Source of the DNA: Candidatus Omnitrophota bacterium
GTDB lineage: Bacteria > Omnitrophota > Gorgyraeia > 2-01-FULL-45-10
Direction: 5' to 3'
Assembly: GCA_023818895.1 (NCBI GenBank)
Contig: JAMWCX010000002.1
Coordinates: 90,001 to 122,000, forward strand
Length of the DNA: 32,000 nt
Position 1 is the first letter of the stretch. Every line of letters begins with the position of its first letter. Made by a program: the position numbers and the translations under genes. Positions 12,428 through 25,293 of the stretch are shown here, piece by piece. The notes under the pieces are model-generated. The model was not told the DNA's origin. It saw only the letters and a program-made list of their open reading frames with translations, and ran no database searches.

Positions 12428-13000
12428 TTATGCTTGGAGATAAGATTCGTGGAGTTTGGTGTAAATGGAACCCTGCGAGGTCAAGGTACTCTGAAAGAGG
12501 ACAACAGATTCGACGCGGTGCGAAGGCACCGCGGAGAGATTGAAATTCGCCTCTACCGACGCCATCTTTTCTTTAAGCTTTGATCTGTTAACCGAAGATC
12601 TGACGCGGCCGATTGTAAGGTGCGGGCTAAAGGGCCTGTCTTCTTTCGCAAAGCCTATCTTAGAAAGCGCTTCATCTATCGAGGAGGCCAATTCCAAAGC
12701 CTCTCCGACTCCTTTCCCAAGGCCCACCCATATAACACGTGGATAATCTATCTTTGGGAAAGCGCCTATATCTTTCAACGTGATATCAAATTTCTTTGTC
12801 GAGGCAGCGACAGCATCAAGTGCGCTTTTTACTTCCGAAACTTTCGTCTCAGATACCTCACCAAGGAATTTCATCGTGACATGAATTATCTCGGGCCTAA
12901 CCCACTTTACATCAGCACCGGAGTATTTAAGATGGGACTCTATCTGACCAAGGATTTTCTTGATTTCATCCGAAACTTCTATAGCAATAAATGTCCTCAT
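12428..13000 (-). CDS. thpR: RNA 2',3'-cyclic phosphodiesterase (2H phosphoesterase, LigT/ThpR family)
   Basis: Two HxT/Sx motifs (HVTMKFLG and HLTIGR) at the spacing expected for the 2H fold. I trimmed the track ORF (to 13051) to the ATG at 13000 (MRTFIAIEV). This is the canonical family N-terminus and sits 2 nt after the cinA stop. Confidence 0.8.
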   Translation of the reverse strand: MRTFIAIEVSDEIKKILGQIESHLKYSGADVKWVRPEIIHVTMKFLGEVSETKVSEVKSALDAVAASTKKFDITLKDIGAFPKIDYPRVIWVGLGKGVGEALELASSIDEALSKIGFAKEDRPFSPHLTIGRVRSSVNRSKLKEKMASVEANFNLSAVPSHRVESVVLFQSTLTSQGSIYTKLHESYLQA

Positions 13001-13002
13001 AA

Positions 13003-14235
13003 TCAGATGCCGGTTCTTATCATATCTAAAGCCGCTTGCGACGTCTGCCATTTTATATCAGCGCGAGAACCAACAAAGTGAAATTCTTTAACCATGCTTA
13101 CCTCATCAGTAACCAAAGCGATATAGACCAAGCCCACGGGTTTACTCTTGGTGCCGCCGGTCGGACCGGCGATGCCTGTTACCCCAAGCCCAACATCCAC
13201 ATGCATAATCGATTTTATACCCCTTGCCATTTCTAGAGCGACTTGTTTTGAAACCGCACCATACCTCTTCAGCGTCTCCGCAGAAACTCCGACGTGCTTG
13301 ACCTTCACTTCGTTCGCGTAAGGAACGGCCCCCCTGATAAAATACCTGGAACTTCCGCTGACATCCGTCAGTCTGCTGGAAATAAGTCCTCCGGTACAAG
13401 ACTCAGCGACAGCTATGGTCTTGTTCTCTGCAATAAGCCTATGCCCTGCCGCTTGTTCGAGCGTCTCCTCGTCATAGCCGAAAATATATTTATCAAGCCT
13501 TGAGCGGATTTTATTTTCAATAACCGCGATGGCCTTTTCGGCAGCGATTCTGTTTTTGGCTTTCGCCATTATCGTCAGGTCAACCTCTCCAAGCTTCGCG
13601 TATATTCCGACTGTAGTAGGCGGCTTGAGCTCAAGAAGGTCCTTTACCATAATATTGATCTGCGATTCAGGAAGGCCTGTCGTCTTAATTGTCCTTGTCC
13701 TGAAAACATATCCGGACCTGAAGTTTTTCTTAAGATATGGGACAATCCCTTTCTCGAATATGGGTTGCAACTCTCTGGGAGGACCTGGAAGGCAAATCAA
13801 CACTTTATCGCGATGCTCGATGATAATACCGGGAGCGGTGCCAACTCTGTTGGCGACCCATTTGGCGCCTTGGGGTATATACGCCTGCCTCTCATTACCA
13901 TCCGGTACCGCCAAGTGGCGAGCCTTGAAGTGTCTTTTTATATTTTTAAGGATTGACCTCTTGAGCACAAGTTTCTTACCCAGCATAGCCGCTAGGGTCC
14001 TTATCGTTATGTCATCAACGGTAGGGCCGAGTCCGCCAGTCAACATCACAATATCTGATCTTATGAGGGCCTTGCGGACAAGCTGCGCAAGCCTGTGGGG
14101 GTTATCGCCAACGGTGGTCTGGTAATAGACGTCTATTCCAAGTTCGGCGAGTCTCTGGGAAAGATAGGCAGCGTTGGTATTCACAATGCGGCCGAGAAGC
14201 AACTCCGTGCCTATAGATATGATTTCCGCTTTCAT
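13003..14235 (-). CDS. cinA: CinA-family protein (MoCF-binding N-terminal domain plus nicotinamide-nucleotide amidase PncC-like C-terminal domain)
   Basis: 410-aa ORF with MKAEIISIGTELLLGRIVNTNAAYLSQRL..TGGLGPTVDDIT at the N-terminus and AESCTGGL..GVTGIAGP in the C-terminal half. It sits upstream of recA, as in many bacteria. Confidence 0.9.
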   Translation of the reverse strand: MKAEIISIGTELLLGRIVNTNAAYLSQRLAELGIDVYYQTTVGDNPHRLAQLVRKALIRSDIVMLTGGLGPTVDDITIRTLAAMLGKKLVLKRSILKNIKRHFKARHLAVPDGNERQAYIPQGAKWVANRVGTAPGIIIEHRDKVLICLPGPPRELQPIFEKGIVPYLKKNFRSGYVFRTRTIKTTGLPESQINIMVKDLLELKPPTTVGIYAKLGEVDLTIMAKAKNRIAAEKAIAVIENKIRSRLDKYIFGYDEETLEQAAGHRLIAENKTIAVAESCTGGLISSRLTDVSGSSRYFIRGAVPYANEVKVKHVGVSAETLKRYGAVSKQVALEMARGIKSIMHVDVGLGVTGIAGPTGGTKSKPVGLVYIALVTDEVSMVKEFHFVGSRADIKWQTSQAALDMIRTGI

Positions 14236-14362: not shown

Positions 14363-14437
14363 ATAAAACCCGGGCTGGGGAGAGGATGGGCCAACTCGGG
14401 GGAAGCCCCCTCACCCCAGCTTGACCCGGGTTTTTAT
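14363..14437 (-). terminator. Rho-independent terminator downstream of the giant ORF (bidirectional in form)
   Basis: AAAACCCGGG (14365..14374) pairs with CCCGGGTTTT (14425..14434). Inner pairing is CTGGGG (14375..14380) with CCCCAG (14414..14419), plus a GGGGG-AAG-CCCCC core (14398..14410). On the minus strand the stem is followed by TTTTATTATG. It starts about 37 nt after the giant ORF stop codon. Confidence 0.7.
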
Positions 14438-14473: not shown

Positions 14474-17400
14474 TTAGGCTGCAATCAGGAAGTTCTCCAT
14501 CTTTATCCTGAAGCGATCAAGCTCATCAACGTCAATCCTGACCAGCGGCTTGAACCTGAGTATAGCCCTCATCGCAAACGCCATATTGTTCTGAGCGTCA
14601 TCCTTGATAAGCGCCAGTATCTCGTCATCTATGGCAACTCCGGACATCAACTTATAATAAGAGGCTATGGCCTGTCTGTTATTAGCCATAACGGCTCTGG
14701 CTAATCCTATGACTCCTTCCAAATAAAGATAATTAACCCCAACAAGCTTATCGTCGAGTATAAGCAGGCTTGAGCGAAGCGCCGTTTCTTTATCCGAACC
14801 GTTCCAGATATTTTTATCCTCGAAATCCTCTTTCGCAAGCACCGCGACCAGCTTGTCCTTGGAGGCTCCTTTGTTTGTCACTGCCCTGCGTATTTCGTCC
14901 GGTTTCATTATCGCCACACCCCCTCCCTCGAAAAGCGGCGCAAGAGCCAGTCTTATCTGAACGAGCTCTGTCTCATCGCCATCTCTCACAAAAAGGTTCT
15001 CAGACAAAAGTATCTTGCTTCCGTCAGCAGTAAGCTTTCCATTGAGGCCGCTTTCGAACAGAGAACGTATCTTTACAAGTATATCGCCTTCTCCAGAAAT
15101 GATCGGCTCAGCCCTATACACAACGCCTCTTCGCCTCTCACCGCCTGTACCCGGATACATGGAAAAATCATCGATATCTATATTCTGTCTTACGTAAGAA
15201 ATACCACTCTTCCTCCCCGCGATATTCAAAACTTCGTCCAAATACTGCAATTGGCGCTTGACGAACATAATTCCTACTGGATTATTCCTACATTCTTCGG
15301 CACTGTAGGGCGTGACATCGTTTACAAACAGGCGGCCGCCGTTCTTACTCAGATTTCGCAGTATAGGCTCCATAATCTTATATATTTTTCTCACGAAATA
15401 ATCCTCTGCTGCCATCTCCACCTTTTTTATCTTGTCAGCATCTGAGTGTGCTATTTGCGATTGCTTAAAGAAATCTAACGCTATAGTATCGGAAACAGGA
15501 TCTACAGCTGTATGCAGGACCGCCAGCATCACTATATCGTCAAAAACCCTATCAGAGATAGCGTCGTATGAACTAAACGCCTCTATCTCTTTGTCCAGCC
15601 CAAAGTTCCTATGTAAACGCTCCTGAGAATAAAGGCTTTTGGCGCCGGTATCGATGACGGTTGTCCTCATGCCTATCTTGGCGAGAAGCACCGGAAGATA
15701 GTCAAGGTTCCCTGGTCCTACCACAAGAACCCTTTCGCCTTTCTTGAGGCCCATATTGGCCACCTTCTTCAAAATATGTTTTTTCATATTCTCCGTGAAG
15801 AAATTATCTCCGGATATCCTGGCTATCTCCTCTATGGCCGCTTTGATATCAGCCGTCTCCACTACCGATGATAAGGGCGACTCAGACAAACTTTTTTGTG
15901 TTAGCTGCTGGTTTGATTTTCCCGCAACCAACTTCTCCCTAATTGCTCGATAGCCGTTAATAAGAGCCTCGCTGTTCCTGATAATATCATCGCGCTTTTC
16001 GCCGTCATACTGGGTTATGAGACGGCGCTGTTCCTCCGCCAATAAGCGCTCTTTTTCAAACAATTCTTTCAGCAGCAGATTATCTTTTAAGGAACTCCAT
16101 TCTTGAGGCGGCACAGCGAGCTTTCCATGCGCGCCAACTCCGCCTTCGTCGCCCAGATATATGCAATCTGGGTTTCCTTTACCATCAAGCGCGACCTCTA
16201 CACGATCTGCCAAAAGCATGTTTATGAATTTCTGAATTCTCATTAATGATGATTCGGCTAGCGCGGCTTTTTCGGGTGTCCAAACATTGTCGGCAAGCAT
16301 AATCTGTGCGATTCTGGCGCCTTCGAGGGCGTTTGTGAAATAATGCTCCAGAGATCTTATAAGGCATCTGATTAAAATGGGCTCGGGGAATGAGGATTCC
16401 TTTACCGCAATGCTGTTCTGTTGCGCATCCGGCAAGCGCTTCGCTGTACCATCTAAAATTATCGGCTCTTTGGCGCCGACCACAGACCCTTTTCTGGTAT
16501 AAACGTTGAGATAACCGCTTTTAAGCGGCACCCTCTCATACAAAAGCCCTTCATCCGATATGCGGTCCAAATCGCCGAATATAATAAGCTTGGCTCCATC
16601 CCGCATACCATTTTTACTCACCATTTTTTTGCGCAGGGCATCATGCCATTTAGCCGAATCCACGCCGGCAGGGCAAGTATAGAAGAAATACAGCACATCA
16701 TATCCGGATAGGTCGGTGTCTTCTGCGAGAAAATCGCCTTTAATGAACCTAACGTTTCGGGCACGCTTCACCAGCCCAAGATCCTTCTGATGTGAAAGCG
16801 CAGCCCTGTGAAGGTTCTCATTCCATTCGATGCCTGAAACATCCTTAAAATGCTTCGAGGCCAAGAAACAAAACATGCCATTTCCGCTGCCCAAGTCGCA
16901 TATATTAGCGGAAGGGTTAATCAGCTTTATGTAATGTATTATCTGCAAAGCTATGCTAGCGGGGGTCCACAAAAATATGCCGTGTTTTTCTGAATCATGT
17001 TTGTCCCCCAGATCTTTATCAACGCAGGCATTCTCAATGAGGCGTACATCCCAACTATAACACTCCTCTTGAGCTCTTCTAATCGCGTATTCCATTATAA
17101 GCGCCGAGCCGTCTTTGTCTGGCGGCTGCGTTATGTGCGGGGTGCCGGGGCCCCAGCCGGGGTTTCTTACGGGCATTGACTTCCCTATCACCAGCGAAGA
17201 ATCAAGATAACCGCTCTTTACCCATGCACCAACAGCATCAAGCAACCGTCCTGCCTCACAGAGTTTCTCCAGCTCATTAAGCGACTTTTCAGATCCTTCC
17301 AGACATTTCAGCATTTCTTTCTTGTCTACAGAGGCGCTATCGGTATGATATATTATCGCGATGAGACCGGTCATAGAATCCCTGACAAGATCAATAAATT

Positions 17401-20400
17401 CATCGGTCGCTATTCCATCGAACTCTTCATTAATGCTGGCTATTATATTCACAGCATGGGAATGCGCTCCGCTGATATCCCCTCTCTCTATATAAGCCCT
17501 GATCAGATTAATCTTGTCCCTGCATATCTTCGCGAATCGCCGAAATGCAACGTATAAGGCCTCCTCCTCAAAACACCTATGCAGATTTGCCCTGTTTATG
17601 GCAAACGCCTTAGCAACTTCAAACCGGCCAGCCTCGTCGAGACCAAAGTCAGAGGCCAGCGCCCTGACAAGCTCTGTCCGTGCGATCTTATCCAAGCGCC
17701 TTATGTATTCTCTATTCGAGTATTTATTCAATACAGCCATGGTGGCGGACAGGTCTTTTAATCTATTCATCCTGAGGACACGTTTTATGTCGTCTACTGC
17801 CGCTATGAGACGGAGCGTGCTTATGGCCTTGAAAGCGCTCTTTTCCATCGACACAAACGCTGCTAGATAACATAACATCTTAAAAGAAGTGGCGCGCGGC
17901 GAACCGCGTATAAGCTGCTTGGCCTTGATGAACGACTCAAAGGTCTCGATAAATGTGTCTTCCTTGAGGTAGCGCCTATTGCCGCCGGCGAGCCTTTCGG
18001 TTTCATATTTATCCCTGAACGATTCCATAAATTCGGCCAGAAGCGCCGCTTCCCCTATCTTATCCTTTAGTATCCCCGCCCAGAACTTAGCCCTGCTGAT
18101 GTGGACGGACTTTTCCTTTTCTGCCGAAGCATTCAGGACGCCTTCCGTTTCACGTATAAGCGGCCACAGAATCGAATCCAAACCCTCCAGGTCTGGCTCA
18201 TTTAGCTGCGACTTGATCCTCCTGTACAGACCATATGCATTATTGCGGGCAGAGCGATAATCTCCCTTATCAAGTAATATATTTATCTTATTCATCCTTG
18301 ATACAAGCTCCTTATTATGGAGAGCCACCATATCCCGATAAGGTTCCACTCGACCGGTCTTTAGGTAATGCAGCATGCTATCGATATTCTCCACCCTAAG
18401 GCCCAAATATCTTTTGGCTATGGGTAAAAGGTGCTTTAAGCTTGCGGTATCTTCCAAATCGATAAGGTCTATGGCTGTTTCAAGCGTTATGCGAGCGAGT
18501 CGCTTTTCCTCCACAATAACACCGGCCAGCCCGTATAGGATATGGCTTATATTTCCTGTATTCACCGCTGATGCGTCTGAAGCGGTGACGGCAATCTCTT
18601 TCGTAACCATATCTATGTAACCGGACATAACATCTCTTTCATCAAGCAAGCTTTCTATCTGATCATCCAGCGACCGACCTACCTGCCAGCGTAAATCGAA
18701 CTTTTTATCGATATATATCGGCACCAATGTCTTCGCCTCCTCGCCCGCGCGTATGTAACTATGCTGCTGTATTACAATCTTGCCATCTTTCTCATAAAAC
18801 CTTACCTTATGCTTTCCAGAAATGATCCTCTTTTTCAATATTTCTTCACGGGCGCCTGACACCGCATTCATGGCTCCTACAAGGGCGGCGTTTGCGGCAG
18901 GCTCATTGTCTTTCGATATCATAGCCAGGGCTTTATCGAATTCTTCCTTCACGCGGCGATGGTACTCTGCCATACGTATATCAGATGGCAGCGCCTTAAG
19001 GCGTTCTTCAAATACCTTTATTTCTTTCAACAATCCATCCACATAATTTAACGTCTCGATTTTCGCAGATACTAACGCATCTTTATCGGAATGCCTTTTT
19101 GCCTTCATCCTCTTCGCCAGCAGCACCAAAAGTCTTAAGTTGGCTTCAAAGAGAGTCTCGAAATAGTCCTTGTAAATAGATTCTGCGCTAACTTTTTCCT
19201 CGAATGTGACAGATGGTCGGCCTAATTCTTCATCGGGTGGTTGCGTTATATGCGGCGTACCTGGTCCCCAGAACTTGTTGGGACGTTCCTTTTCAGTATC
19301 TGACTTTGAGAGGGTACCGGCTGGCAAGGCTGCCAGTCCTTCAATGCGTCTGAGGATATGCTGTGGGACATCCTCATTCTTACCGTCCTCATATGCCCGC
19401 CAAATATTTTCATCCAATCCGAGTCTATCACTTATATCTTTCTCCGAAAGCCTGAGTAACTTTCTTACCAAAACCAACCTCTCGCCCATACTATGGGCTT
19501 TTTCCAGATTTTCGTTGACAAAGTTTTCCGTGGCTTCCCAGAAGGCACCCGCGGCATCTTTGGCCACATCAAGATACTGCTCATGATAAAATTCCCTCAT
19601 CTTATCGTCATCTATTTTATATATCATCAGACGTATGGCTATCAAAACGGGCCTTACATCGTCCCGTATGGCCCACCGTATCCTTTGAGGGTCCTTTGCC
19701 CTCTCTGCGTCATCTATCCTTGCCTCCGCGACCTGCAAGGCATTGTCTATCTCCGCCAAGAGCTCGTCCTGGCTGATCTCTTCTTCCTCAGCATCATCTT
19801 CGAGACTGTCACCGCTTTCAGCCAATACTTCGGTCTCCTCTTCCGATTCCACGCCCTCTTCGCCTATTTCTTCTATCACCTGCTTCAGTTTAGATGACAA
19901 AAGTCCATCAAAGTGACCGGGACGTTTTTCATTCCTCAAATACGACGGGTAGTTTTCCGCAAATATGGCCTCCTGTATCATTCGCGCCTTCTCATGGCCG
20001 ACATGCGGACAGATGATTTCATGGAAGAGATACTCCTCGAGGCAAGAATCGCTTTTCTCTAGTACATTAAGGACTTCTATTGCAAGACCTATAGTTCTGG
20101 GATATCTTTCTCTGAGCAGTTGCTGGAGGTTGTTCAGGCAGGCATCGTTAACAACTTTATCGGGCGCCCTCGGCATTGTGTTAAATCCGAGCAGCCATCC
20201 CTTCCCGCCCTCTCTGTAGGCCGGACCCGATAGCACCACAGCCCTAAATTTTACCACGTCCATGTCTCCAGCTTCTTTTATACGGTTCGACAACTCTTTC
20301 CTGAGACTTAAAGGTAGGTTCGAACTTTCTATCCTCTTCAATATGCCTTTTATCCTTTCGGAAAATTGTGTACGAAAACTGGCGGAAGGCAACTTTTGTT

Positions 20401-23400
20401 GGGGGCTGGTGATTAGCGCTTCGTAAAGGGCCTTTGGATCTCCCCGCGCAATCTGGCCGTAGTCAGCGGTTTTATAAATTGGTATGCTTACAACAAATCT
20501 TTCACCATTTATGGTCACTTCCCTGCGGTCGGTTCCCGCAAGCGCTGAACTCGGAACAAGCTCATCGTCTCTCAGCTTCCTGACAGTTATAAGGTACATT
20601 GATATATCATCTGATGCGACATTAGTAAAAGGAGTGAGCGATGAGACCGCCATGCCGCTTCTATTAAGCTTTTCTATTATATTGTGATAATGGCTTAATA
20701 GATCGCCTGTTTTTGGTACCATTATGGTCGCAATAAGGGCGCCGCCTGTTTTTAGCTGGTTATAAAAATTGGCGATGGCGCGTATAGGGTCATCAGCATA
20801 CTGAAGAGTAAAGAAAGATGTTATAAGATCCGCTTTCTCAAGAGGCCTGAAAACGGCGGGGTCGCATACATCTCCATTTATAAACTTATACCTGCCTTCC
20901 TTCTCCAGGGTATTTCTTTTCTCGGAAAAAGAGCGCCATTCCTCTTCGTCCAAAGAAGAATCTTTTCTATCCCACCTATTTATATCTATACCGTATGACT
21001 TAAGATGCGGATTTATCCATGAGGCCTCAACAGCCGCCCTGCCTATGCCGCATCCGGCGTCGATATAAACCAGCCCGCCCGACATCACCTGAGAAAAAAC
21101 CTCTACCATAGACATCTGGGCGAGGAAACTTTGATAATCCGAAAGGCCTCTTGATATATTTATCACCGTCTTATTATTTGATCCTGCCCTAATGGGCTGC
21201 GACCCGCTAAAATCGGGTAAGACTCGGTACCACCTATCCTGTGCTTTCTCACCGCCTTCCTCATCCTCCCTTGAAAGGAGAGCCATTCCCAACGCGGATA
21301 TGGCGAAAACACTCCAACTATCAAGCAGGCTTATAGTAAGGCCGGCTTTCAAAAAGAGAGGCGCTATAATAAAGGCGACGGTCGATGTGGCCGCTCCGAG
21401 GATCAACATAAATGATATGTTATCTGAAAATCCATCTTTGCGGGAATCCAACGCTATTTTTCGAGGCTCATCCGAAGGCTCTATGGAAGCTTCCCAGTCA
21501 AGTATAAAGCGATTATGGACCTTGTGATATACTATTTTGTTTATTCGGGCATATTGCTCCGCTCTTGAGATCGCGAATTTGATACTGCTGGAGATCACAT
21601 CTTGTTCCGCAACGTTCAACATACCGCGATCCTTGAAAATACTAAAAACTGTGCTTAGGTTTCTTATATCCTGAATTACGGCATTCAGCTCGTTTTCCGA
21701 AAGTCCTACCGACATTAACTCATCGCAAGTTTCAGATATATCGTTTACCTTGCTCAATATCTTCTCATAATCCGAGGGGGTGATCGGCTTTGGGAATGCC
21801 TCCCACATGGCCTTAAGTTCCAGACAACCTTTCTTAAGACGGCCCGCCCACTCCTTCAGCCTCTCTATAGTCAAGCGCTTCTCTTTTTCGAAAAGCGGAG
21901 AGGCCAATAGATACCACAAGTCGTTCAAAATTTTAGTGTACCATCTCTCTCTGAAGCCGGAAAGCAGCTTATCATAATCGTCCACTATCTCCTCAACGCC
22001 TCTGACCTCTATGGACTTTTCTCCGTATAGCTTTCTTCTCGTCACGCTCTCCAAAGACATGCCTTTTGTTTTCTCGTTTTCAGTCCTGGCTACGAGGACC
22101 GTCTCAGGTTCAGGATCAAAACCAAACCGGCCAATCGCATCTACCGAAAGCAAAAGAAGGTTGCCTTCCTTGTCAAGTATCCTGATCTGGCCTAAACGTT
22201 GCGAATCTTTGGTAAAACTGGAAAGCGATATCACCGTATTCACCCCCAGCTCTATGCGCCTTAACTGCCTCTCTTTATCACCACCTTCCGCAACGGCTAT
22301 ACCGCCGAGCTCTGGTGTGCCAAAAGGTGTTATAGCCCACTCTTCTTTGGTACGAGGATTCAACAAACCGAATATCTTAGGAAGCGGCCGTGTATCCTCT
22401 TTAAGCCTTTGCGAAAGATGCTCAAACACCACATCAAGCGGCTCATCGGGCCCTGTATTTAACAATTCTTCGATGTTATTTAAAATCTTTTGCTTAGTAA
22501 TCTTTTCGCCAAAACCATTTATACCGTTACTCTTTTTTATTTTATCAGCATCCCTTTCTCTTTGCACAATGGCCCTTATGGCATTTATGCGGTCCTCTCT
22601 TTTTACACCATTATCCTCACCAGCTGTCTCCATAAGAAGCCAAATCTCTTTCATAAGCTTCAAAAGCCATAAGCCCAAGAGAGTCTTCTGCCTGAATTCA
22701 TTCTCCATGGCATCAAGCGCCTCTATCCCTCTAAGGCCGCGCCATTTCAGGTTCTCCGGAACAGCTCCCGCTATATAAATATTATGGTGCTTATCTTCCG
22801 CGTACACGAACCTCATATTCTCAACTATAAATTCCGCCGTATCCAATAGCTTCGGGTGAAAACGATACCAAAGCTGCCACTGACTGTCGATGGTCGTTGA
22901 ATGTCTATTAGACATCTTTATCAGCATATCTTCAAAATGCTTGGCCTCCTCTATATCTTTTCGCAGCCTGGGAGGCGTGTTGTCGTCCACCGTCATTCTC
23001 GCCAGGGCCTTAAGGGATTTTAAAACGTTAGGCCCACCCAGGATCGGATTCGAAAGCCACGTAAAAGTTAATCTATCGTCACCGAGCATGGCCTGCAGGA
23101 AAATATGCTCGGTCTTACCCATTATCATCGATAGGCGCGGCAGCTTGCCAGAATCGATGTGTTCCCTTAGGAGATCTATGGCCTCAAGGCCATATTCTTC
23201 CTTGGTGCGCCCTATATAATCACCTATAAACTGAAGAGTTCTGTAGCCATTTTTATGAAGCCAGTCGAGAACCACCTTCAGCCTTACAACATTTCCGTGA
23301 ACCTCAGAGACTACCGCTTCGCGCTCAACATCGGCTGTTCTTATGTGCTCTAACCGCCTTCTGTTAAATTTCATCAGACTTTTAAGGCGAGTGATGTCAT

Positions 23401-25024
23401 ATACAGTGGAACGCACATCCACTTTCACGAGCCTGCATAATGGCAAAAACCCCAATATCTTCTTGGAGCCCGTTAAAGCCAGAGCTCTATTCACTTCCTC
23501 TATAATACGTTCTATCCTTTTCTTCCTCTCATCTTCACTGACACTTCCAGGGCCGTCGTCAGCTATTATGAGCGCGAAAGAACGCTTCGTGGAGCTTTCT
23601 ATCCTGTTCTTCAAAATTTCTATATTGTATTTTGCCCCGGCAGAATAGGCAGACTTGATAACGAGTATATCGTCAGGCCTGTTCGGACATTCTATCAACT
23701 CCACATTTTCGCTGAGAGCCTTCCCCTTAAGCCAGTCACGCCAATATATCATCTCACCCGTTCTCTCATCCTTCGTGTTGTTATGAGCGTATGCCGCTAT
23801 GAGGCTATCTATTTCCTCATCACTTAAATGCTCCCATGACTTCTGGTCAAGCAGCCAGTGACCGGCAGGACTTTTGGAAATGCCGAGCGCGATGGCCATA
23901 TATCGGCAAGCTATTGGGATAAGAATATTATATATTGCCAGAGAAAACCCAAATACGATATCGCTCATCGGCAAGAACCAGCCGAAAGCCGCCAACGAAA
24001 CGAAGTTAATCGTAAGCCATGGCAGGCAGAATGTAAGAGGGACGGCCGAAAGCTCTATCTTTACCCTGAACATCCCGCCAAATATTGCGTTGCTATGTAC
24101 CCATTCATGTAGATATACGACCCACTGGAAGAAGAGTGGCATTCGCCTTAAGGCATCCTTATCCGCGAAGAGGGCGCTATTGATACGAGTCATCTGGCCG
24201 TTCTTCAGCATTTTTTCTACGGTGAAGGAAAAATAGGACAGCTTGCCCTTGGCGTCTGCGCGCACGCTATTGTCTGTCACGGCGTCTAACACGCGTATAT
24301 TCTCTGCTCTGTCAAAGGGCTTGATGAGCCCATGGTCTTTTCTCGCATGGCGAAAGGAAAGGGCGTCTTCCATAAAATAGGCGGTGAAAACGGGCAATAG
24401 GCTCATGAATAAAACATAGAATATAGACAAGGCTACCGAGAAAATGCTTTGATGGACGGATGTTACAGAAATGAGCAAAAGGGTGCTTATTACGCCTATC
24501 AGCGCCGCCATCCTTATCTTTTGGGGTTCCGCGGCAGCCCCTTCAGGCGTCTGTGTGTTGCCAGCCGTATCGGATTTTCTTAAAACCTGTTTACAAACCG
24601 ACCCAAGCCGGCCAAAAGCTTCCTCACTGTATCCTTCAACATTCCGCAAAGCGATATTCGGGTCGAAATATCTTAGCGCGTAGTCGGATGGAAAACTTAT
24701 CAGGGCTTCACTAAAATTATCGGCAACACTATATACGACTCCGTTTTCGTTAAGCCACTTCTTATGATGCCGAAGTATGCGATCTATGCTTTCAATTGCG
24801 ACATCTCCGCTGTTGATATGCCCGTTCTTTTCTATGGATATCTCTATAAATTTAGCTACCGCGCGGATATGAGACTGAGCATTTCGCAGGAAAAATTCAG
24901 GGGCAAGTTTATCAGGATGTGCCCATACTATATCCTGGAAAATAAAAGTTATTATTAATATGGCGGAGATTAACTTAATTAATGGATGGAACTTAGTGGG
25001 CTTATTTTGGTTAAATGCGTACAA
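14474..25024 (-). CDS. Giant 3,516-aa membrane-anchored multidomain protein of unknown function (HExxH membrane module, three SAM-methyltransferase-like domains, embedded HTH)
   Basis: A single uninterrupted 10,551-nt ORF in mid-GC DNA. Multiple independent enzyme-like motifs are in frame (see the sub-features). The start is TTG at 25024..25022, with a TAA seven codons upstream in frame. There is no other ATG, GTG or TTG in frame in the first 40 codons I checked, and no Met residue before 172. I recognise no Shine-Dalgarno sequence (upstream gatagtaagaaaaaaTTG). Confidence 0.9.
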   Translation of the reverse strand: MYAFNQNKPTKFHPLIKLISAILIITFIFQDIVWAHPDKLAPEFFLRNAQSHIRAVAKFIEISIEKNGHINSGDVAIESIDRILRHHKKWLNENGVVYSVADNFSEALISFPSDYALRYFDPNIALRNVEGYSEEAFGRLGSVCKQVLRKSDTAGNTQTPEGAAAEPQKIRMAALIGVISTLLLISVTSVHQSIFSVALSIFYVLFMSLLPVFTAYFMEDALSFRHARKDHGLIKPFDRAENIRVLDAVTDNSVRADAKGKLSYFSFTVEKMLKNGQMTRINSALFADKDALRRMPLFFQWVVYLHEWVHSNAIFGGMFRVKIELSAVPLTFCLPWLTINFVSLAAFGWFLPMSDIVFGFSLAIYNILIPIACRYMAIALGISKSPAGHWLLDQKSWEHLSDEEIDSLIAAYAHNNTKDERTGEMIYWRDWLKGKALSENVELIECPNRPDDILVIKSAYSAGAKYNIEILKNRIESSTKRSFALIIADDGPGSVSEDERKKRIERIIEEVNRALALTGSKKILGFLPLCRLVKVDVRSTVYDITRLKSLMKFNRRRLEHIRTADVEREAVVSEVHGNVVRLKVVLDWLHKNGYRTLQFIGDYIGRTKEEYGLEAIDLLREHIDSGKLPRLSMIMGKTEHIFLQAMLGDDRLTFTWLSNPILGGPNVLKSLKALARMTVDDNTPPRLRKDIEEAKHFEDMLIKMSNRHSTTIDSQWQLWYRFHPKLLDTAEFIVENMRFVYAEDKHHNIYIAGAVPENLKWRGLRGIEALDAMENEFRQKTLLGLWLLKLMKEIWLLMETAGEDNGVKREDRINAIRAIVQRERDADKIKKSNGINGFGEKITKQKILNNIEELLNTGPDEPLDVVFEHLSQRLKEDTRPLPKIFGLLNPRTKEEWAITPFGTPELGGIAVAEGGDKERQLRRIELGVNTVISLSSFTKDSQRLGQIRILDKEGNLLLLSVDAIGRFGFDPEPETVLVARTENEKTKGMSLESVTRRKLYGEKSIEVRGVEEIVDDYDKLLSGFRERWYTKILNDLWYLLASPLFEKEKRLTIERLKEWAGRLKKGCLELKAMWEAFPKPITPSDYEKILSKVNDISETCDELMSVGLSENELNAVIQDIRNLSTVFSIFKDRGMLNVAEQDVISSSIKFAISRAEQYARINKIVYHKVHNRFILDWEASIEPSDEPRKIALDSRKDGFSDNISFMLILGAATSTVAFIIAPLFLKAGLTISLLDSWSVFAISALGMALLSREDEEGGEKAQDRWYRVLPDFSGSQPIRAGSNNKTVINISRGLSDYQSFLAQMSMVEVFSQVMSGGLVYIDAGCGIGRAAVEASWINPHLKSYGIDINRWDRKDSSLDEEEWRSFSEKRNTLEKEGRYKFINGDVCDPAVFRPLEKADLITSFFTLQYADDPIRAIANFYNQLKTGGALIATIMVPKTGDLLSHYHNIIEKLNRSGMAVSSLTPFTNVASDDISMYLITVRKLRDDELVPSSALAGTDRREVTINGERFVVSIPIYKTADYGQIARGDPKALYEALITSPQQKLPSASFRTQFSERIKGILKRIESSNLPLSLRKELSNRIKEAGDMDVVKFRAVVLSGPAYREGGKGWLLGFNTMPRAPDKVVNDACLNNLQQLLRERYPRTIGLAIEVLNVLEKSDSCLEEYLFHEIICPHVGHEKARMIQEAIFAENYPSYLRNEKRPGHFDGLLSSKLKQVIEEIGEEGVESEEETEVLAESGDSLEDDAEEEEISQDELLAEIDNALQVAEARIDDAERAKDPQRIRWAIRDDVRPVLIAIRLMIYKIDDDKMREFYHEQYLDVAKDAAGAFWEATENFVNENLEKAHSMGERLVLVRKLLRLSEKDISDRLGLDENIWRAYEDGKNEDVPQHILRRIEGLAALPAGTLSKSDTEKERPNKFWGPGTPHITQPPDEELGRPSVTFEEKVSAESIYKDYFETLFEANLRLLVLLAKRMKAKRHSDKDALVSAKIETLNYVDGLLKEIKVFEERLKALPSDIRMAEYHRRVKEEFDKALAMISKDNEPAANAALVGAMNAVSGAREEILKKRIISGKHKVRFYEKDGKIVIQQHSYIRAGEEAKTLVPIYIDKKFDLRWQVGRSLDDQIESLLDERDVMSGYIDMVTKEIAVTASDASAVNTGNISHILYGLAGVIVEEKRLARITLETAIDLIDLEDTASLKHLLPIAKRYLGLRVENIDSMLHYLKTGRVEPYRDMVALHNKELVSRMNKINILLDKGDYRSARNNAYGLYRRIKSQLNEPDLEGLDSILWPLIRETEGVLNASAEKEKSVHISRAKFWAGILKDKIGEAALLAEFMESFRDKYETERLAGGNRRYLKEDTFIETFESFIKAKQLIRGSPRATSFKMLCYLAAFVSMEKSAFKAISTLRLIAAVDDIKRVLRMNRLKDLSATMAVLNKYSNREYIRRLDKIARTELVRALASDFGLDEAGRFEVAKAFAINRANLHRCFEEEALYVAFRRFAKICRDKINLIRAYIERGDISGAHSHAVNIIASINEEFDGIATDEFIDLVRDSMTGLIAIIYHTDSASVDKKEMLKCLEGSEKSLNELEKLCEAGRLLDAVGAWVKSGYLDSSLVIGKSMPVRNPGWGPGTPHITQPPDKDGSALIMEYAIRRAQEECYSWDVRLIENACVDKDLGDKHDSEKHGIFLWTPASIALQIIHYIKLINPSANICDLGSGNGMFCFLASKHFKDVSGIEWNENLHRAALSHQKDLGLVKRARNVRFIKGDFLAEDTDLSGYDVLYFFYTCPAGVDSAKWHDALRKKMVSKNGMRDGAKLIIFGDLDRISDEGLLYERVPLKSGYLNVYTRKGSVVGAKEPIILDGTAKRLPDAQQNSIAVKESSFPEPILIRCLIRSLEHYFTNALEGARIAQIMLADNVWTPEKAALAESSLMRIQKFINMLLADRVEVALDGKGNPDCIYLGDEGGVGAHGKLAVPPQEWSSLKDNLLLKELFEKERLLAEEQRRLITQYDGEKRDDIIRNSEALINGYRAIREKLVAGKSNQQLTQKSLSESPLSSVVETADIKAAIEEIARISGDNFFTENMKKHILKKVANMGLKKGERVLVVGPGNLDYLPVLLAKIGMRTTVIDTGAKSLYSQERLHRNFGLDKEIEAFSSYDAISDRVFDDIVMLAVLHTAVDPVSDTIALDFFKQSQIAHSDADKIKKVEMAAEDYFVRKIYKIMEPILRNLSKNGGRLFVNDVTPYSAEECRNNPVGIMFVKRQLQYLDEVLNIAGRKSGISYVRQNIDIDDFSMYPGTGGERRRGVVYRAEPIISGEGDILVKIRSLFESGLNGKLTADGSKILLSENLFVRDGDETELVQIRLALAPLFEGGGVAIMKPDEIRRAVTNKGASKDKLVAVLAKEDFEDKNIWNGSDKETALRSSLLILDDKLVGVNYLYLEGVIGLARAVMANNRQAIASYYKLMSGVAIDDEILALIKDDAQNNMAFAMRAILRFKPLVRIDVDELDRFRIKMENFLIAA
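15305..15772 (-). other. Giant protein aa ~3085-3240: third Rossmann/SAM-methyltransferase-like domain
   Basis: GERVLVVGPGNLDYLPVLLAKIGMRTTVIDTGAKSL is a glycine-rich loop followed by an acidic residue at the end of beta2. FDDIVMLAVLH and LSKNGGRLFVNDV follow. It is weaker than domains 1 and 2, and the GPG loop is atypical. Confidence 0.4.
16550..16972 (-). other. Giant protein aa ~2685-2825: class I SAM-dependent methyltransferase-like domain 2
   Basis: Motif I is ICDLGSGNGMF, post-I is VSGIEWNENL, motif II is VRFIKGDFL, and motif III is YDVLYFFY. AKLIIF follows. Confidence 0.65.
17117..17155 (-). repeat. Giant protein aa 2624-2636: peptide WGPGTPHITQPPD, copy 2
   Basis: The reverse complement reads TGG GGC CCC GGC ACC CCG CAC ATA ACG CAG CCG CCA GAC. 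The peptide is identical to copy 1, with 9 synonymous third-position differences. Confidence 0.95.
19232..19270 (-). repeat. Giant protein aa 1919-1931: peptide WGPGTPHITQPPD, copy 1
   Basis: The reverse complement reads TGG GGA CCA GGT ACG CCG CAT ATA ACG CAA CCA CCC GAT. Confidence 0.95.
19370..19489 (-). other. Giant protein aa ~1846-1885: XRE/Cro-C1-type helix-turn-helix-like segment
   Basis: GERLVLVRKLLRLSEKDISDRLGLDENIWRAYEDGKNEDVPQHILRRIEGLAALPAGTL follows the pattern of XRE HTH domains (GxRLxxxRxxxxLSxxxLAxxLGxxxxxxxxxExGK..P....L..IA..L). Confidence 0.5.
20690..21127 (-). other. Giant protein aa ~1300-1445: class I SAM-dependent methyltransferase-like domain 1
   Basis: Motif I is VYIDAGCGIG (verified at 21041..21070), post-I is SYGIDIN, and motif II is FINGDV. 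These are followed by ADLITSFFTLQYADDPIRAIANFYNQLKTGGALIATI. Order and spacing match the Rossmann-fold methyltransferase pattern. Confidence 0.7.
21275..21418 (-). other. Giant protein aa 1203-1250: internal pair of predicted transmembrane helices
   Basis: ISFMLILGAATSTVAFIIAPLFLKAGLTISLLDSWSVFAISALGMALLS is two ~20-residue hydrophobic stretches separated by K-A-G. Charged sequence lies on both sides (RKDGFSD before, SREDEEGGEK after). Confidence 0.5.
24095..24109 (-). other. Giant protein aa 306-310: HEWVH (HExxH zinc-metallopeptidase-type motif) within a hydrophobic block
   Basis: Plus strand atgtacccattcatg is, in reverse complement, CAT GAA TGG GTA CAT = H E W V H. It is flanked by the hydrophobic segments LFFQWVVYL and, downstream, LSAVPLTFCLPWLTINFVSLAAFGWFL and IVFGFSLAIYNILIPIACRYMAIALGI. 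Confidence 0.4.
24923..24985 (-). other. Giant protein aa 14-34: N-terminal signal peptide or signal anchor
   Basis: A basic n-region (NKPTKFH) is followed by the hydrophobic stretch PLIKLISAILIITFIFQDIVWA and then HPD. V-W-A fits the -3/-1 signal peptidase rule. Confidence 0.5.
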
Positions 25025-25293
25025 TTTTTTCTTACTATCTATTAAATTAACCGATATTACAAAAAAATAAATGTTTTAATTAAATTAAAGGCGATTAGTT
25101 AAAATATTTAATCTAAATGTTTATTTATATAACAACAACTAAAATTAATAGCCACAATTCTAATAAGCTAAAAATTGAAATTCGAGAAATCATGTAGATA
25201 TAGGATATCATATAATAAAAATTTGTCAATAGTTAATACCTACCTATTTTATATCCTAACGGATATCTTGCTATATAAATCCTAAAATCTATT
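25025..25293 (-). promoter_or_regulatory. Extremely AT-rich intergenic region upstream of the giant ORF (presumed promoter and 5' leader)
   Basis: My hand count gives 53 G+C in 269 nt (about 20%), against visibly mid-GC coding flanks. It contains GGATATC at 25203..25209 and 25261..25267, an ATATCC-TAAC-GGATAT hairpin (25251..25266), and ATTAAATTAA twice (25041..25050 and 25079..25088). Confidence 0.5.
25202..25229 (-). promoter_or_regulatory. Candidate promoter for the giant ORF (TTGACA-N16-TATCCT)
   Basis: The minus strand reads TTGACAaatttttattatatgaTATCCT. The -35 element is plus strand tgtcaa (25224..25229) and the -10 is plus strand aggata (25202..25207). Chance matches are likely in DNA this AT-rich. 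Confidence 0.2.

Follow-up and report, generated by a model that had tools for sequence, protein, structure and literature searches.

The window analysed here is a stretch of 32,000 nucleotides from a metagenome-assembled genome (MAG) of a Candidatus Omnitrophota bacterium (GCA_023818895.1; contig JAMWCX010000002.1, positions 90,001 to 122,000), and it contains one open frame of 10,551 nt and 3,516 codons with a TTG start (14474..25024; this and all features of the window listed with coordinates below lie on the minus strand). The encoded protein, here called the giant, is identical over 3,516 of 3,516 amino acids (aa) to MCM8790840.1, for which the NCBI annotation pipeline called the same start; that entry lies on a 442,820-nt contig and is titled 'MAG: methyltransferase domain-containing protein [Candidatus Omnitrophica bacterium]'. 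In the following, aa numbers refer to the giant, P numbers denote proteins and L numbers contigs or loci of its relatives. The gene is preceded by an AT-rich spacer of 269 nt (25025..25293; 19.7 % GC compared to ~47 % in the window) with a promoter-like TTGACA-16-TATCCT at 25229-25202, although such matches are not above shuffle expectation. An intrinsic terminator (14365..14434) follows, a compound G+C-rich hairpin located 40 bases past the stop codon (-42.7 kcal/mol, z = -4.07 versus shuffles) and then the U-run UUUUAUUAU. Having its own AT-rich spacer and its own terminator, the gene is a stand-alone unit with a single unbroken reading frame, as described in the first-pass annotation of this DNA. 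Rfam families, tRNAs and tandem repeats were not found in or around it. The same annotation had called the protein non-repetitive and free of non-ribosomal peptide synthetase (NRPS), polyketide synthase (PKS), adhesin or RTX signatures, and indeed, Tandem Repeats Finder (TRF) gave 0 tandem repeats and none of these families was present in a Pfam scan. The only repeated stretches of at least 6 aa are the peptide WGPGTPHITQPPD and the 7-mer DADKIKK; the latter, found at aa 825-831 in a phosphatase-like block and at aa 3195-3201 in a module resembling the S-adenosylmethionine (SAM) fold, probably recurs by chance.

A second MAG (GCA_023818765.1) encodes aa 656-3108 on the 7,361-nt contig JAMWDH010000047.1 (L013), which is collinear with the window and differs at 5 of 7361 nt with 0 indels; on another of its contigs an N-terminal fragment (P0023) corresponds to aa 1-628 with one substitution. 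A collinear copy without indels makes a chimera or a frameshift artefact, a concern raised at the first pass, very unlikely; the giant is encoded by a single, real gene of an uncultured member of the Omnitrophota. All five differences between L013 and window positions 15701-23059 change the encoded residue (codon position 1 in four cases, position 2 in one), which is not significant with so few changes.

The peptide WGPGTPHITQPPD, already noticed at the first pass as a repeat flanking a helical stretch, is located at aa 1919-1931 (copy 1; 19232..19270) and aa 2624-2636 (copy 2; 17117..17155). The two copies differ at 8 of 12 free third-codon positions and, therefore, the peptide and not the DNA is conserved. 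Degenerate-pattern scans revealed WGPGTPHITQPPD in the Omnitrophota MAG Zod_Metabat.83 as well as in three metagenome contigs of the Joint Genome Institute (JGI). An exact-motif scan of genome_contigs and a scan of viral_contigs gave no match; the relaxed scan of genome_contigs gave one true match and three chance matches in short, high-GC open reading frames (ORFs). The 13 copies available at the DNA level, from four organisms, have a mean aa identity of 93 % and share an invariant W, G, P, G, P, H, I, Q, P and D, while third-codon positions are 46 % identical between loci and identity is 9-12 % in the 20-residue flanks. The composition of these flanks is that expected for linkers, with G, E, R, D and P in excess and L and I in short supply. 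A tandem-motif profile run against a database of 5.8 billion proteins yielded no candidates; HMMER, run exhaustively on 1.84 billion representative sequences, gave eight matches, six of them true (the giant, P0016, P0017, P0018, P0019 and P0022). The P0019 cluster includes P0026 (MCM8790201.1, 3,441 aa, locus tag NC938_00665, on a 732,676-nt contig), which has one WGPGTPHITQPPD copy at aa 344-356 and is apparently from the same MAG as the window, judged by its accession and the NC938 locus-tag series. If this is correct, WGPGTPHITQPPD is used in more than one gene of the genome. A literature search for the string 'WGPGTPH' returned no paper.

To place these copies within the protein, its relatives have to be considered. 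Among 5.8 billion proteins, five (P0001-P0005) share blocks with the giant, and all named ones are from Omnitrophota. The best match, P0001, covers 28 % of the query with 43 % identity, and the full architecture was found in no protein outside the same population. BLAST matches are distributed as a mosaic: aa 16-984 match P0001, aa 161-1054 match P0002 and P0003 at internal positions, aa 1289-1551 match L001 and P0016, aa 1948-2465 match P0004 (and aa 2035-2429 P0003), aa 2464-2618 match P0001, aa 2614-2846 (the span of three matches) match P0005, L003 and L001, aa 3055-3304 match P0002, and aa 3304-3516 match P0001 and P0004. Each block matches a different relative: the giant is a mosaic of about ten autonomous modules on one polypeptide. 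Both WGPGTPHITQPPD copies lie within ~20 residues of breakpoints in homology to different relatives. Copy 1 is located a few residues before the homology to P0004 starts, and copy 2 six residues past the end of the homology to P0001, which itself continues, after a short spacer, into the C-terminal domain. Wherever it was found, WGPGTPHITQPPD lies between domain-sized segments of 158-692 aa, one protein having six copies, and in two other proteins (L001 and P0016, each 36 % identical to the giant over this part) the cassette of methyltransferase 1 is bounded by it on both sides. P0001-P0005 have neither WGPGTPHITQPPD nor an analogous repeated delimiter. WGPGTPHITQPPD is a strongly selected boundary peptide and a candidate processing signal.

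The gene occupies a conserved site. All flanking genes are on the giant's strand and the neighbours in the window are housekeeping genes: bacA, ftsK, rodZ, a miaB-like gene, pgsA and pgpA on one side, cinA, ligT, recA, recX, alaS, hisD, hisB, hisH, hisA, hisF, hisI, trpE, trpG and trpD on the other. In another genome the gene for P0001 (3,029 aa; L008) lies between pgpA and ligT-cinA-recA-recX-alaS-his, and the gene for P0004 (2,036 aa; L009) lies just upstream of ligT-cinA-recA, with a further gene of at least 3,840 aa in front of it. Profile searches showed that an N-terminal leader and a C-terminal domain of type 1 are common to exactly the giant, P0001 and P0004; the type 1 domain is also present in nine C-terminal fragments on short contigs (P0006-P0014). 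P0001 further keeps module A, the ~900 aa (aa 166-1054) made up of an HExxH membrane domain and a pseudo-phosphatase block, and the cassettes in the interior differ from gene to gene. Where the giant has methyltransferases, a helix-turn-helix (HTH) and a helical module, for instance, the sequence of P0001 was read as containing radical-SAM, nitrilase-like and kinase-like segments. Since leader and C-terminal domain are kept and the interior is swapped, the locus is a conserved site for a large gene, and the giant is the positional counterpart of the large genes between pgpA and cinA-ligT-recA-recX-alaS-his in other Omnitrophota.

Some further observations concern this locus. In the window (12428-14235) cinA and ligT are co-directional with the giant, whereas in L008 (15531-17325) and L009 (16173-17869) these two genes run opposite to both the large gene and recA, indicating a rearrangement right beside the 3' end of the large gene. 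In L009 (19251-20702) a gene for an HtrA-type trypsin/PDZ protease is located between recA and recX; it is absent there in the window and in L008. Large mosaic genes often occur in tandem (L011 10001-26553; L012 1478-20112; L009 1-16111), and the gene for P0005 (3,116 aa) is directly followed by genes of 2,398 or 3,091 aa. Throughout window positions 1-32000 every ORF assigned to a gene is on the minus strand, and only a single 1-kb bin has a GC skew that is not negative, consistent with a single orientation relative to replication.

The N-terminus (aa 1-35, 24920..25024) looks like a Sec signal peptide, with a Lys-rich n-region, a hydrophobic core at aa 15-33 (aa 14-34 in the first-pass annotation) and a putative 'VWA/xPD' cleavage site picked out by eye; the giant reads 'IVWA/HPD', and WA-xPD follows the hydrophobic core in both syntenic relatives, P0001 and P0004, as well. 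The leader domain behind it (aa 36-165, 24530..24919) is common only to these two and has no Pfam match; a common leader beyond the three syntenic genes was considered and found unsupported by profile search. Hydropathy, helices in AlphaFold2 (AF2) models and the alignment of homologues then define a membrane domain (aa 166-381, 23882..24529) with two transmembrane (TM) hairpins (aa 168-216 and 325-379). The loop between the hairpins carries invariant GLIxPFxxAENxR, DAKGKxSYxS and HExxH motifs. The latter reads HEWVH (aa 306-310), and all four homologues keep H306, E307, H310 and a Glu 14 residues after the motif (E324), P0001 having one residue more (HExx(x)H). The HEWVH helix has a mean hydropathy of 0.0 and is not a TM segment; of the roughly five helices with HEWVH first described for aa 170-381, the motif remains and the helices are four, in two hairpins. 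No Pfam, NCBIfam or PDB match and no peptidase family was found for aa 166-381 including the HExxH region (aa 290-330), which was compared with zincin metalloproteases (HExxH plus a third ligand). A third TM hairpin was located by hydropathy at aa 1205-1250 (21275..21412), almost exactly where it had been noted before (aa 1203-1250). In total, there are seven hydrophobic helices, the N-terminal segment and three hairpins, or about one TM helix per few hundred residues, and hydropathy and AF2 helices are concordant on membrane anchoring. By hydropathy, every hydrophobic helix past the N-terminal segment sits in a hairpin with a loop of 3-7 residues; because all later helices are paired, the parity is even, and the odd helix count from which the first pass had placed everything on the cytoplasmic side was not reproduced.

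Next to the membrane domain lies an alpha/beta segment with a degenerate homologue of calcineurin-like phosphoesterases (aa 382-1054, 21863..23881; core aa 570-779). The motifs SEVHG, GDYIGR, GKTEH and AGA of the core align to a region of the large gene upstream of P0004 in L009 that reads DMHG, GDAID, GNHE and HGG (tblastn, E = 4e-6). Local Foldseek matches of the AF2 model, whose predicted local distance difference test (pLDDT) score is 59, were solely calcineurin-like (SapH, PH1004, 1nnw, RLPH2 and PP1; probability 0.96-1.0, E = 0.05-1); sequence searches with module A gave no Pfam or PDB match. Compared to calcineurin-like metallophosphoesterases (PF00149), the beta-alpha-beta core keeps the canonical order of motifs, but in all four module A homologues ExH stands in place of DxH, GDxxDR lacks its second Asp, Gx[ST]EH stands in place of GNH[DE] and AGA in place of HGG, so that the His is absent. 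Since these replacements are common to all four, the block is a conserved but degenerate phosphatase homologue; the metallophosphatase-like segment suspected at the first pass is a real homologue, with its canonical metal and catalytic motifs replaced.

Two of the methyltransferase-like domains of the first-pass annotation, encoded further downstream, are class I SAM methyltransferases that score above the Pfam gathering cut-offs. Methyltransferase 1 (aa 1289-1551, 20372..21160; Pfam core aa 1319-1431) matches Methyltransf_23 with 55.9 bits and has the SAM loop DAGCGIG. Methyltransferase 2 (aa 2659-2846, 16487..17050; Pfam core aa 2704-2798) matches Methyltransf_31 with 54.0 bits, has the SAM loop DLGSGNG and is like protein methyltransferases: it matches PDB entry 5fa8, annotated 'ribosomal protein L11 methyltransferase, putative' (E = 1.5e-3), and is also near models of protein-L-isoaspartate O-methyltransferase. 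The PADLOC model mad2 matches aa 2672-2787 (window 16664-17011) with E = 1.9e-16 but covers only 110 of its 492 profile positions; such a resemblance at the level of one domain does not indicate a defence system. The third methyltransferase-like domain proposed at the first pass corresponds to a putative Rossmann or SAM-fold-like module (aa 3055-3304, 15113..15862) that is homologous to P0002 aa 3486-3738 and has the loop VVGPGNLD. Methyltransferase 1 is followed by a module with the motif EYLxHExxCPxxGH (aa 1560-1720, 19865..20347; HEIICPHVGH at aa 1668-1677, window 19994-20023), which occurs twice in the large gene upstream of P0004 (L009, ~3339 and ~5247). The motif is like the metzincin HExxHxxGxxH with Cys for the second His and could be a metal site or belong to an unusual peptidase. 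Then come the acidic tract seen before (aa 1721-1765, 19730..19864), a possible XRE-like HTH (aa 1847-1892, 19349..19486; HTH_19) and, between the two WGPGTPHITQPPD copies, a helical, TPR-like module of 692 aa (aa 1932-2623, 17156..19231) with homology to P0004 aa 1047-1569, P0003 aa 2378-2757 and P0001 aa 2685-2827. Apart from the methyltransferases and the weak HTH, no module of the giant matched a Pfam family.

The chain ends with the type 1 C-terminal alpha/beta domain (aa 3313-3516, 14477..15088; ...MENFLIAA). Its AF2 model (pLDDT 63) has a four-strand parallel core, and no PDB match was found by sequence or by fold (best E = 0.05, TM-score ~0.25). A different alpha/beta domain of ~200 aa, type 2, ends P0002, P0005, P0016, P0022, P0026 (...YKVQEFA) and ORFs of L001 and L005; it features ...W-I..., ...V-x-V-L-A-G... 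and ...F-x-P-x-A-x-P-I-D...Y...A-stop, and both types end in a similar P..D..Y....A tail. A single C-terminal domain for all long proteins was rejected, as hmmsearch did not link the two types and hhalign gave a probability of 0.8 %.

We propose, with a probability of about 0.5, that the giant is a membrane-tethered carrier of interchangeable modules, most probably cytoplasmic ones, in which WGPGTPHITQPPD marks module boundaries as a likely recognition site. Three SAM-fold domains, an HTH and a TPR-like scaffold would be the enzyme and binding modules that the protein holds at the membrane, and these would act as independent units, most probably on the cytoplasmic side. WGPGTPHITQPPD would most likely be a site at which the chain is recognised and cleaved or otherwise handled, most simply a processing site. 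If it were cleaved, this could free the helical module of 692 aa and part methyltransferases 2 and 3, together with the C-terminal domain, from the anchored portion. For this step, the HExxH membrane domain and the HExxCPxxGH module could serve as proteases, but neither strictly co-occurs with WGPGTPHITQPPD. As to the side of the membrane, the modules are probably cytoplasmic because SAM-dependent and DNA-binding chemistry needs the cytoplasm, as do the radical-SAM, GGDEF, receiver and sigma-factor modules of relatives: P0001 has a CxxxCxxC radical-SAM signature, precomputed Pfam matches of P0003 include a receiver (PF00072) and sigma-70 region 4 (PF04545), and the neighbouring gene in L009 encodes GGDEF, Metallophos and HATPase_c. 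In our view, the biochemistry gives a slight preference to the cytoplasmic face, which parity reasoning does not establish.

Several results weigh against this proposal. Two of the modules are less certain than the first pass had them: the HTH_19 match is present but weak and below the Pfam cut-off (19.9 versus 30.2 bits, E = 7e-4), and the third SAM-fold module has only weak matches (E = 0.04-0.23; BpsA_C 0.04, nicotianamine synthase 0.056). The phosphatase-like domain is devoid of the canonical catalytic residues. An invariant site of 13 residues is longer than typical protease sites. Further, no peptidase family common to the WGPGTPHITQPPD-bearing proteins was found, and module A and WGPGTPHITQPPD occur independently of each other, the former without the latter in P0001-P0003 and the latter without the former in L001, L003, P0016 and P0022. 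Hydropathy parity puts the bulk of the protein outside the cytoplasm and, combined with a functional signal peptide, even parity would place the whole body there. In a catalogue of long Omnitrophota proteins, DeepTMHMM assigns most of them to a class with signal peptide plus TM helices (10.64898/2026.06.07.730766), and the same paradox between topology and chemistry is described for giant Omnitrophota proteins (10.1101/2023.11.21.568195; 10.64898/2026.06.07.730766).

A bolder version of the proposal, which we regard as rather unlikely, is that the genome may encode, in WGPGTPHITQPPD, a signal dedicated to delimiting the parts of a bacterial cellular polyprotein, either as a cut site or by holding translation until the preceding module has folded or inserted. 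The long mosaic genes of one Omnitrophota lineage would then resemble operons, each a string of enzymes that act separately, with modules exchanged at the delimiters.

A rival explanation is less probable than the proposal: the giant could be an exported carrier of multiple effectors similar to MARTX toxins, in which the chain is exported by Sec and pinned by the hairpins, the conserved ends serve anchoring or delivery, and the variable modules are displayed on the cell surface or delivered to a host or prey and released by cleavage at WGPGTPHITQPPD linkers. The N-terminus has n, h and c regions, and each of the three syntenic genes keeps the 'VWA/xPD' site. An even number of TM helices follows the N-terminus, and conserved ends with a variable middle are found in MARTX toxins as well (PMC5218395). 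GNAT, kinase, methyltransferase and glycosyltransferase modules in WGPGTPHITQPPD-bearing relatives look effector-like, and Omnitrophota are thought to be host-dependent or predatory, with long proteins mostly predicted to be extracytoplasmic (PMC10066038; 10.1101/2023.11.21.568195; 10.64898/2026.06.07.730766). However, RTX repeats, a cysteine protease domain and adjacent secretion genes were not found, the neighbours being housekeeping genes, and no delivery mechanism is evident. To be active, exported modules would have to be delivered into another cell, as SAM, DNA and GTP are lacking outside cells, and the receiver and sigma-factor modules of relatives make sense only in the cytoplasm of the producer.

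Less probable still, and in our view doubtful, is that WGPGTPHITQPPD is not cleaved at all and the protein works as one chain, with WGPGTPHITQPPD acting in the nascent chain to halt the ribosome between modules, which would give each one time to fold or insert before the next appears, or as a rigid hinge or docking epitope. WGPGTPHITQPPD is conserved across organisms of 46-57 % GC far beyond the adjoining catalytic domains (34-68 % identical), which fits a universally conserved machine rather than a lineage protease that co-evolves with its site, and the absence of a peptidase shared among WGPGTPHITQPPD-bearing proteins points in the same direction. PPD is a triplet at which stalling depends on EF-P, and the Trp of WGPGTPHITQPPD stands 11 residues before Pro-Pro-Asp, a distance reminiscent of the Trp-to-Pro spacing of the arrest peptides SecM and TnaC. 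On the other hand, the second Pro (Pro12) is Ala in 2 of the 13 copies; a polyproline stall is thus not conserved and the polyproline reading is weakened. Moreover, WGPGTPHITQPPD is confined to six clusters in 1.84 billion, and other long Omnitrophota proteins manage without it. Finally, an assembly or annotation artefact, in which several ordinary genes were joined by a mis-join or sequencing errors, is effectively excluded: it would fit a metagenome-assembled source and a gene split across contigs in the second MAG, but the 7,361 collinear nt of that MAG with five substitutions and no indels, the match of P0023 to aa 1-628 with one substitution, the 3,029-aa and 2,036-aa genes at the same locus in other genomes and a chance of ~e^-180 for a 3,516-codon open frame (own arithmetic, assuming ~5 % stop codons in random sequence of 47 % GC) all speak against it.

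The first-pass annotation could not place the architecture in any described family. This stands for the full architecture, which was unmatched outside the same population, but not for its kind: long, membrane-anchored, methyltransferase-rich multi-enzyme proteins are already described for Omnitrophota (10.1101/2023.11.21.568195; 10.64898/2026.06.07.730766; PMC10066038). Archaeovorins are encoded by genes of >90 kb (>30,000 aa), the type sequence being a protein of 39,678 aa from Velamenicoccus archaeovorus (West-Roberts 2023, 10.1101/2023.11.21.568195). The giant is like them in coming from the same phylum, in combining many unrelated enzyme domains including SAM methyltransferases in one ORF with interspersed TM helices, and in its poor overall conservation, and the question of cleavage applies to both. 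Unlike them, it has only 10,551 nt and 3,516 aa, ten times below the threshold of 30,000 aa, has no SecA-DEAD family (Pfam and NCBIfam scans, E <= 1) and, of the set comprising C39 or S8 peptidases, glycosyl hydrolases, glycosyltransferases, NUDIX and methyltransferases, only the last in Pfam. It is located among housekeeping genes and not beside genes for type II secretion or carbohydrate import, and it has a delimiter peptide of a kind not found in the sections and by the term searches made of that paper, where 'linker' is not a term and cleavage points are stated to be unknown (10.1101/2023.11.21.568195).

A second comparison is with class 1, or co-occurrence Module 1 (methyltransferase/HATPase/GNAT/HAD), of Nielsen & Lui 2026 (10.64898/2026.06.07.730766). 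Methyltransferases of the PF08241 type are a shared feature, and relatives of the giant carry HATPase_c and GNAT domains. The class is tiled with many distinct Pfam families, none of them a dominant repeat, and has a signal peptide and/or TM helices; the giant has no dominant repeat but matches Pfam only with its methyltransferases and a weak HTH, and hydropathy and AF2 suggest a signal peptide plus six TM helices for it. With 3,516 aa, however, the giant is below the 10,000-aa cut-off of the catalogue, and the searches made of that paper revealed no mention of linkers or cleavage sites, nor did the sections read deal with conserved ends, the exchange of modules at a fixed locus or linker motifs (10.64898/2026.06.07.730766). 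Since it fails the size and SecA criteria of Archaeovorins and the 10,000-aa cut-off, the giant is a small variant rather than a member. MARTX toxins are similar in size (3,500-5,200 aa) and in having conserved N- and C-terminal regions that flank interchangeable enzyme modules with linkers between them (PMC5218395, PMC6315884). In MARTX toxins processing takes place at these linkers, while for the giant it is hypothetical. In contrast to them, the giant has no RTX repeats (Pfam, TRF) and no inositol-hexakisphosphate-activated cysteine protease domain (no peptidase family in Pfam or NCBIfam), no type I secretion genes are nearby, and TM hairpins and a Sec-type leader are present instead. What appear to be new are the pattern of conserved ends at a fixed locus, the conserved pseudo-phosphatase/HExxH block and, above all, the delimiter peptide.

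Whether the huge Omnitrophota proteins act as one chain or as cut pieces is a stated open question, and the missing cleavage points have blocked modelling and proteomics (10.1101/2023.11.21.568195). If WGPGTPHITQPPD were only a hinge, the gene would be an ordinary, well-documented member of a known phenomenon. If the delimiter reading is true, WGPGTPHITQPPD would be the first 'cleavage point' to be defined for giant proteins. A gene for 3,516 aa with an exact candidate site is a tractable miniature of the class. The fixed locus between pgpA and cinA-recA, with conserved ends and a swapped interior, provides a natural series for the study of mosaic assembly.

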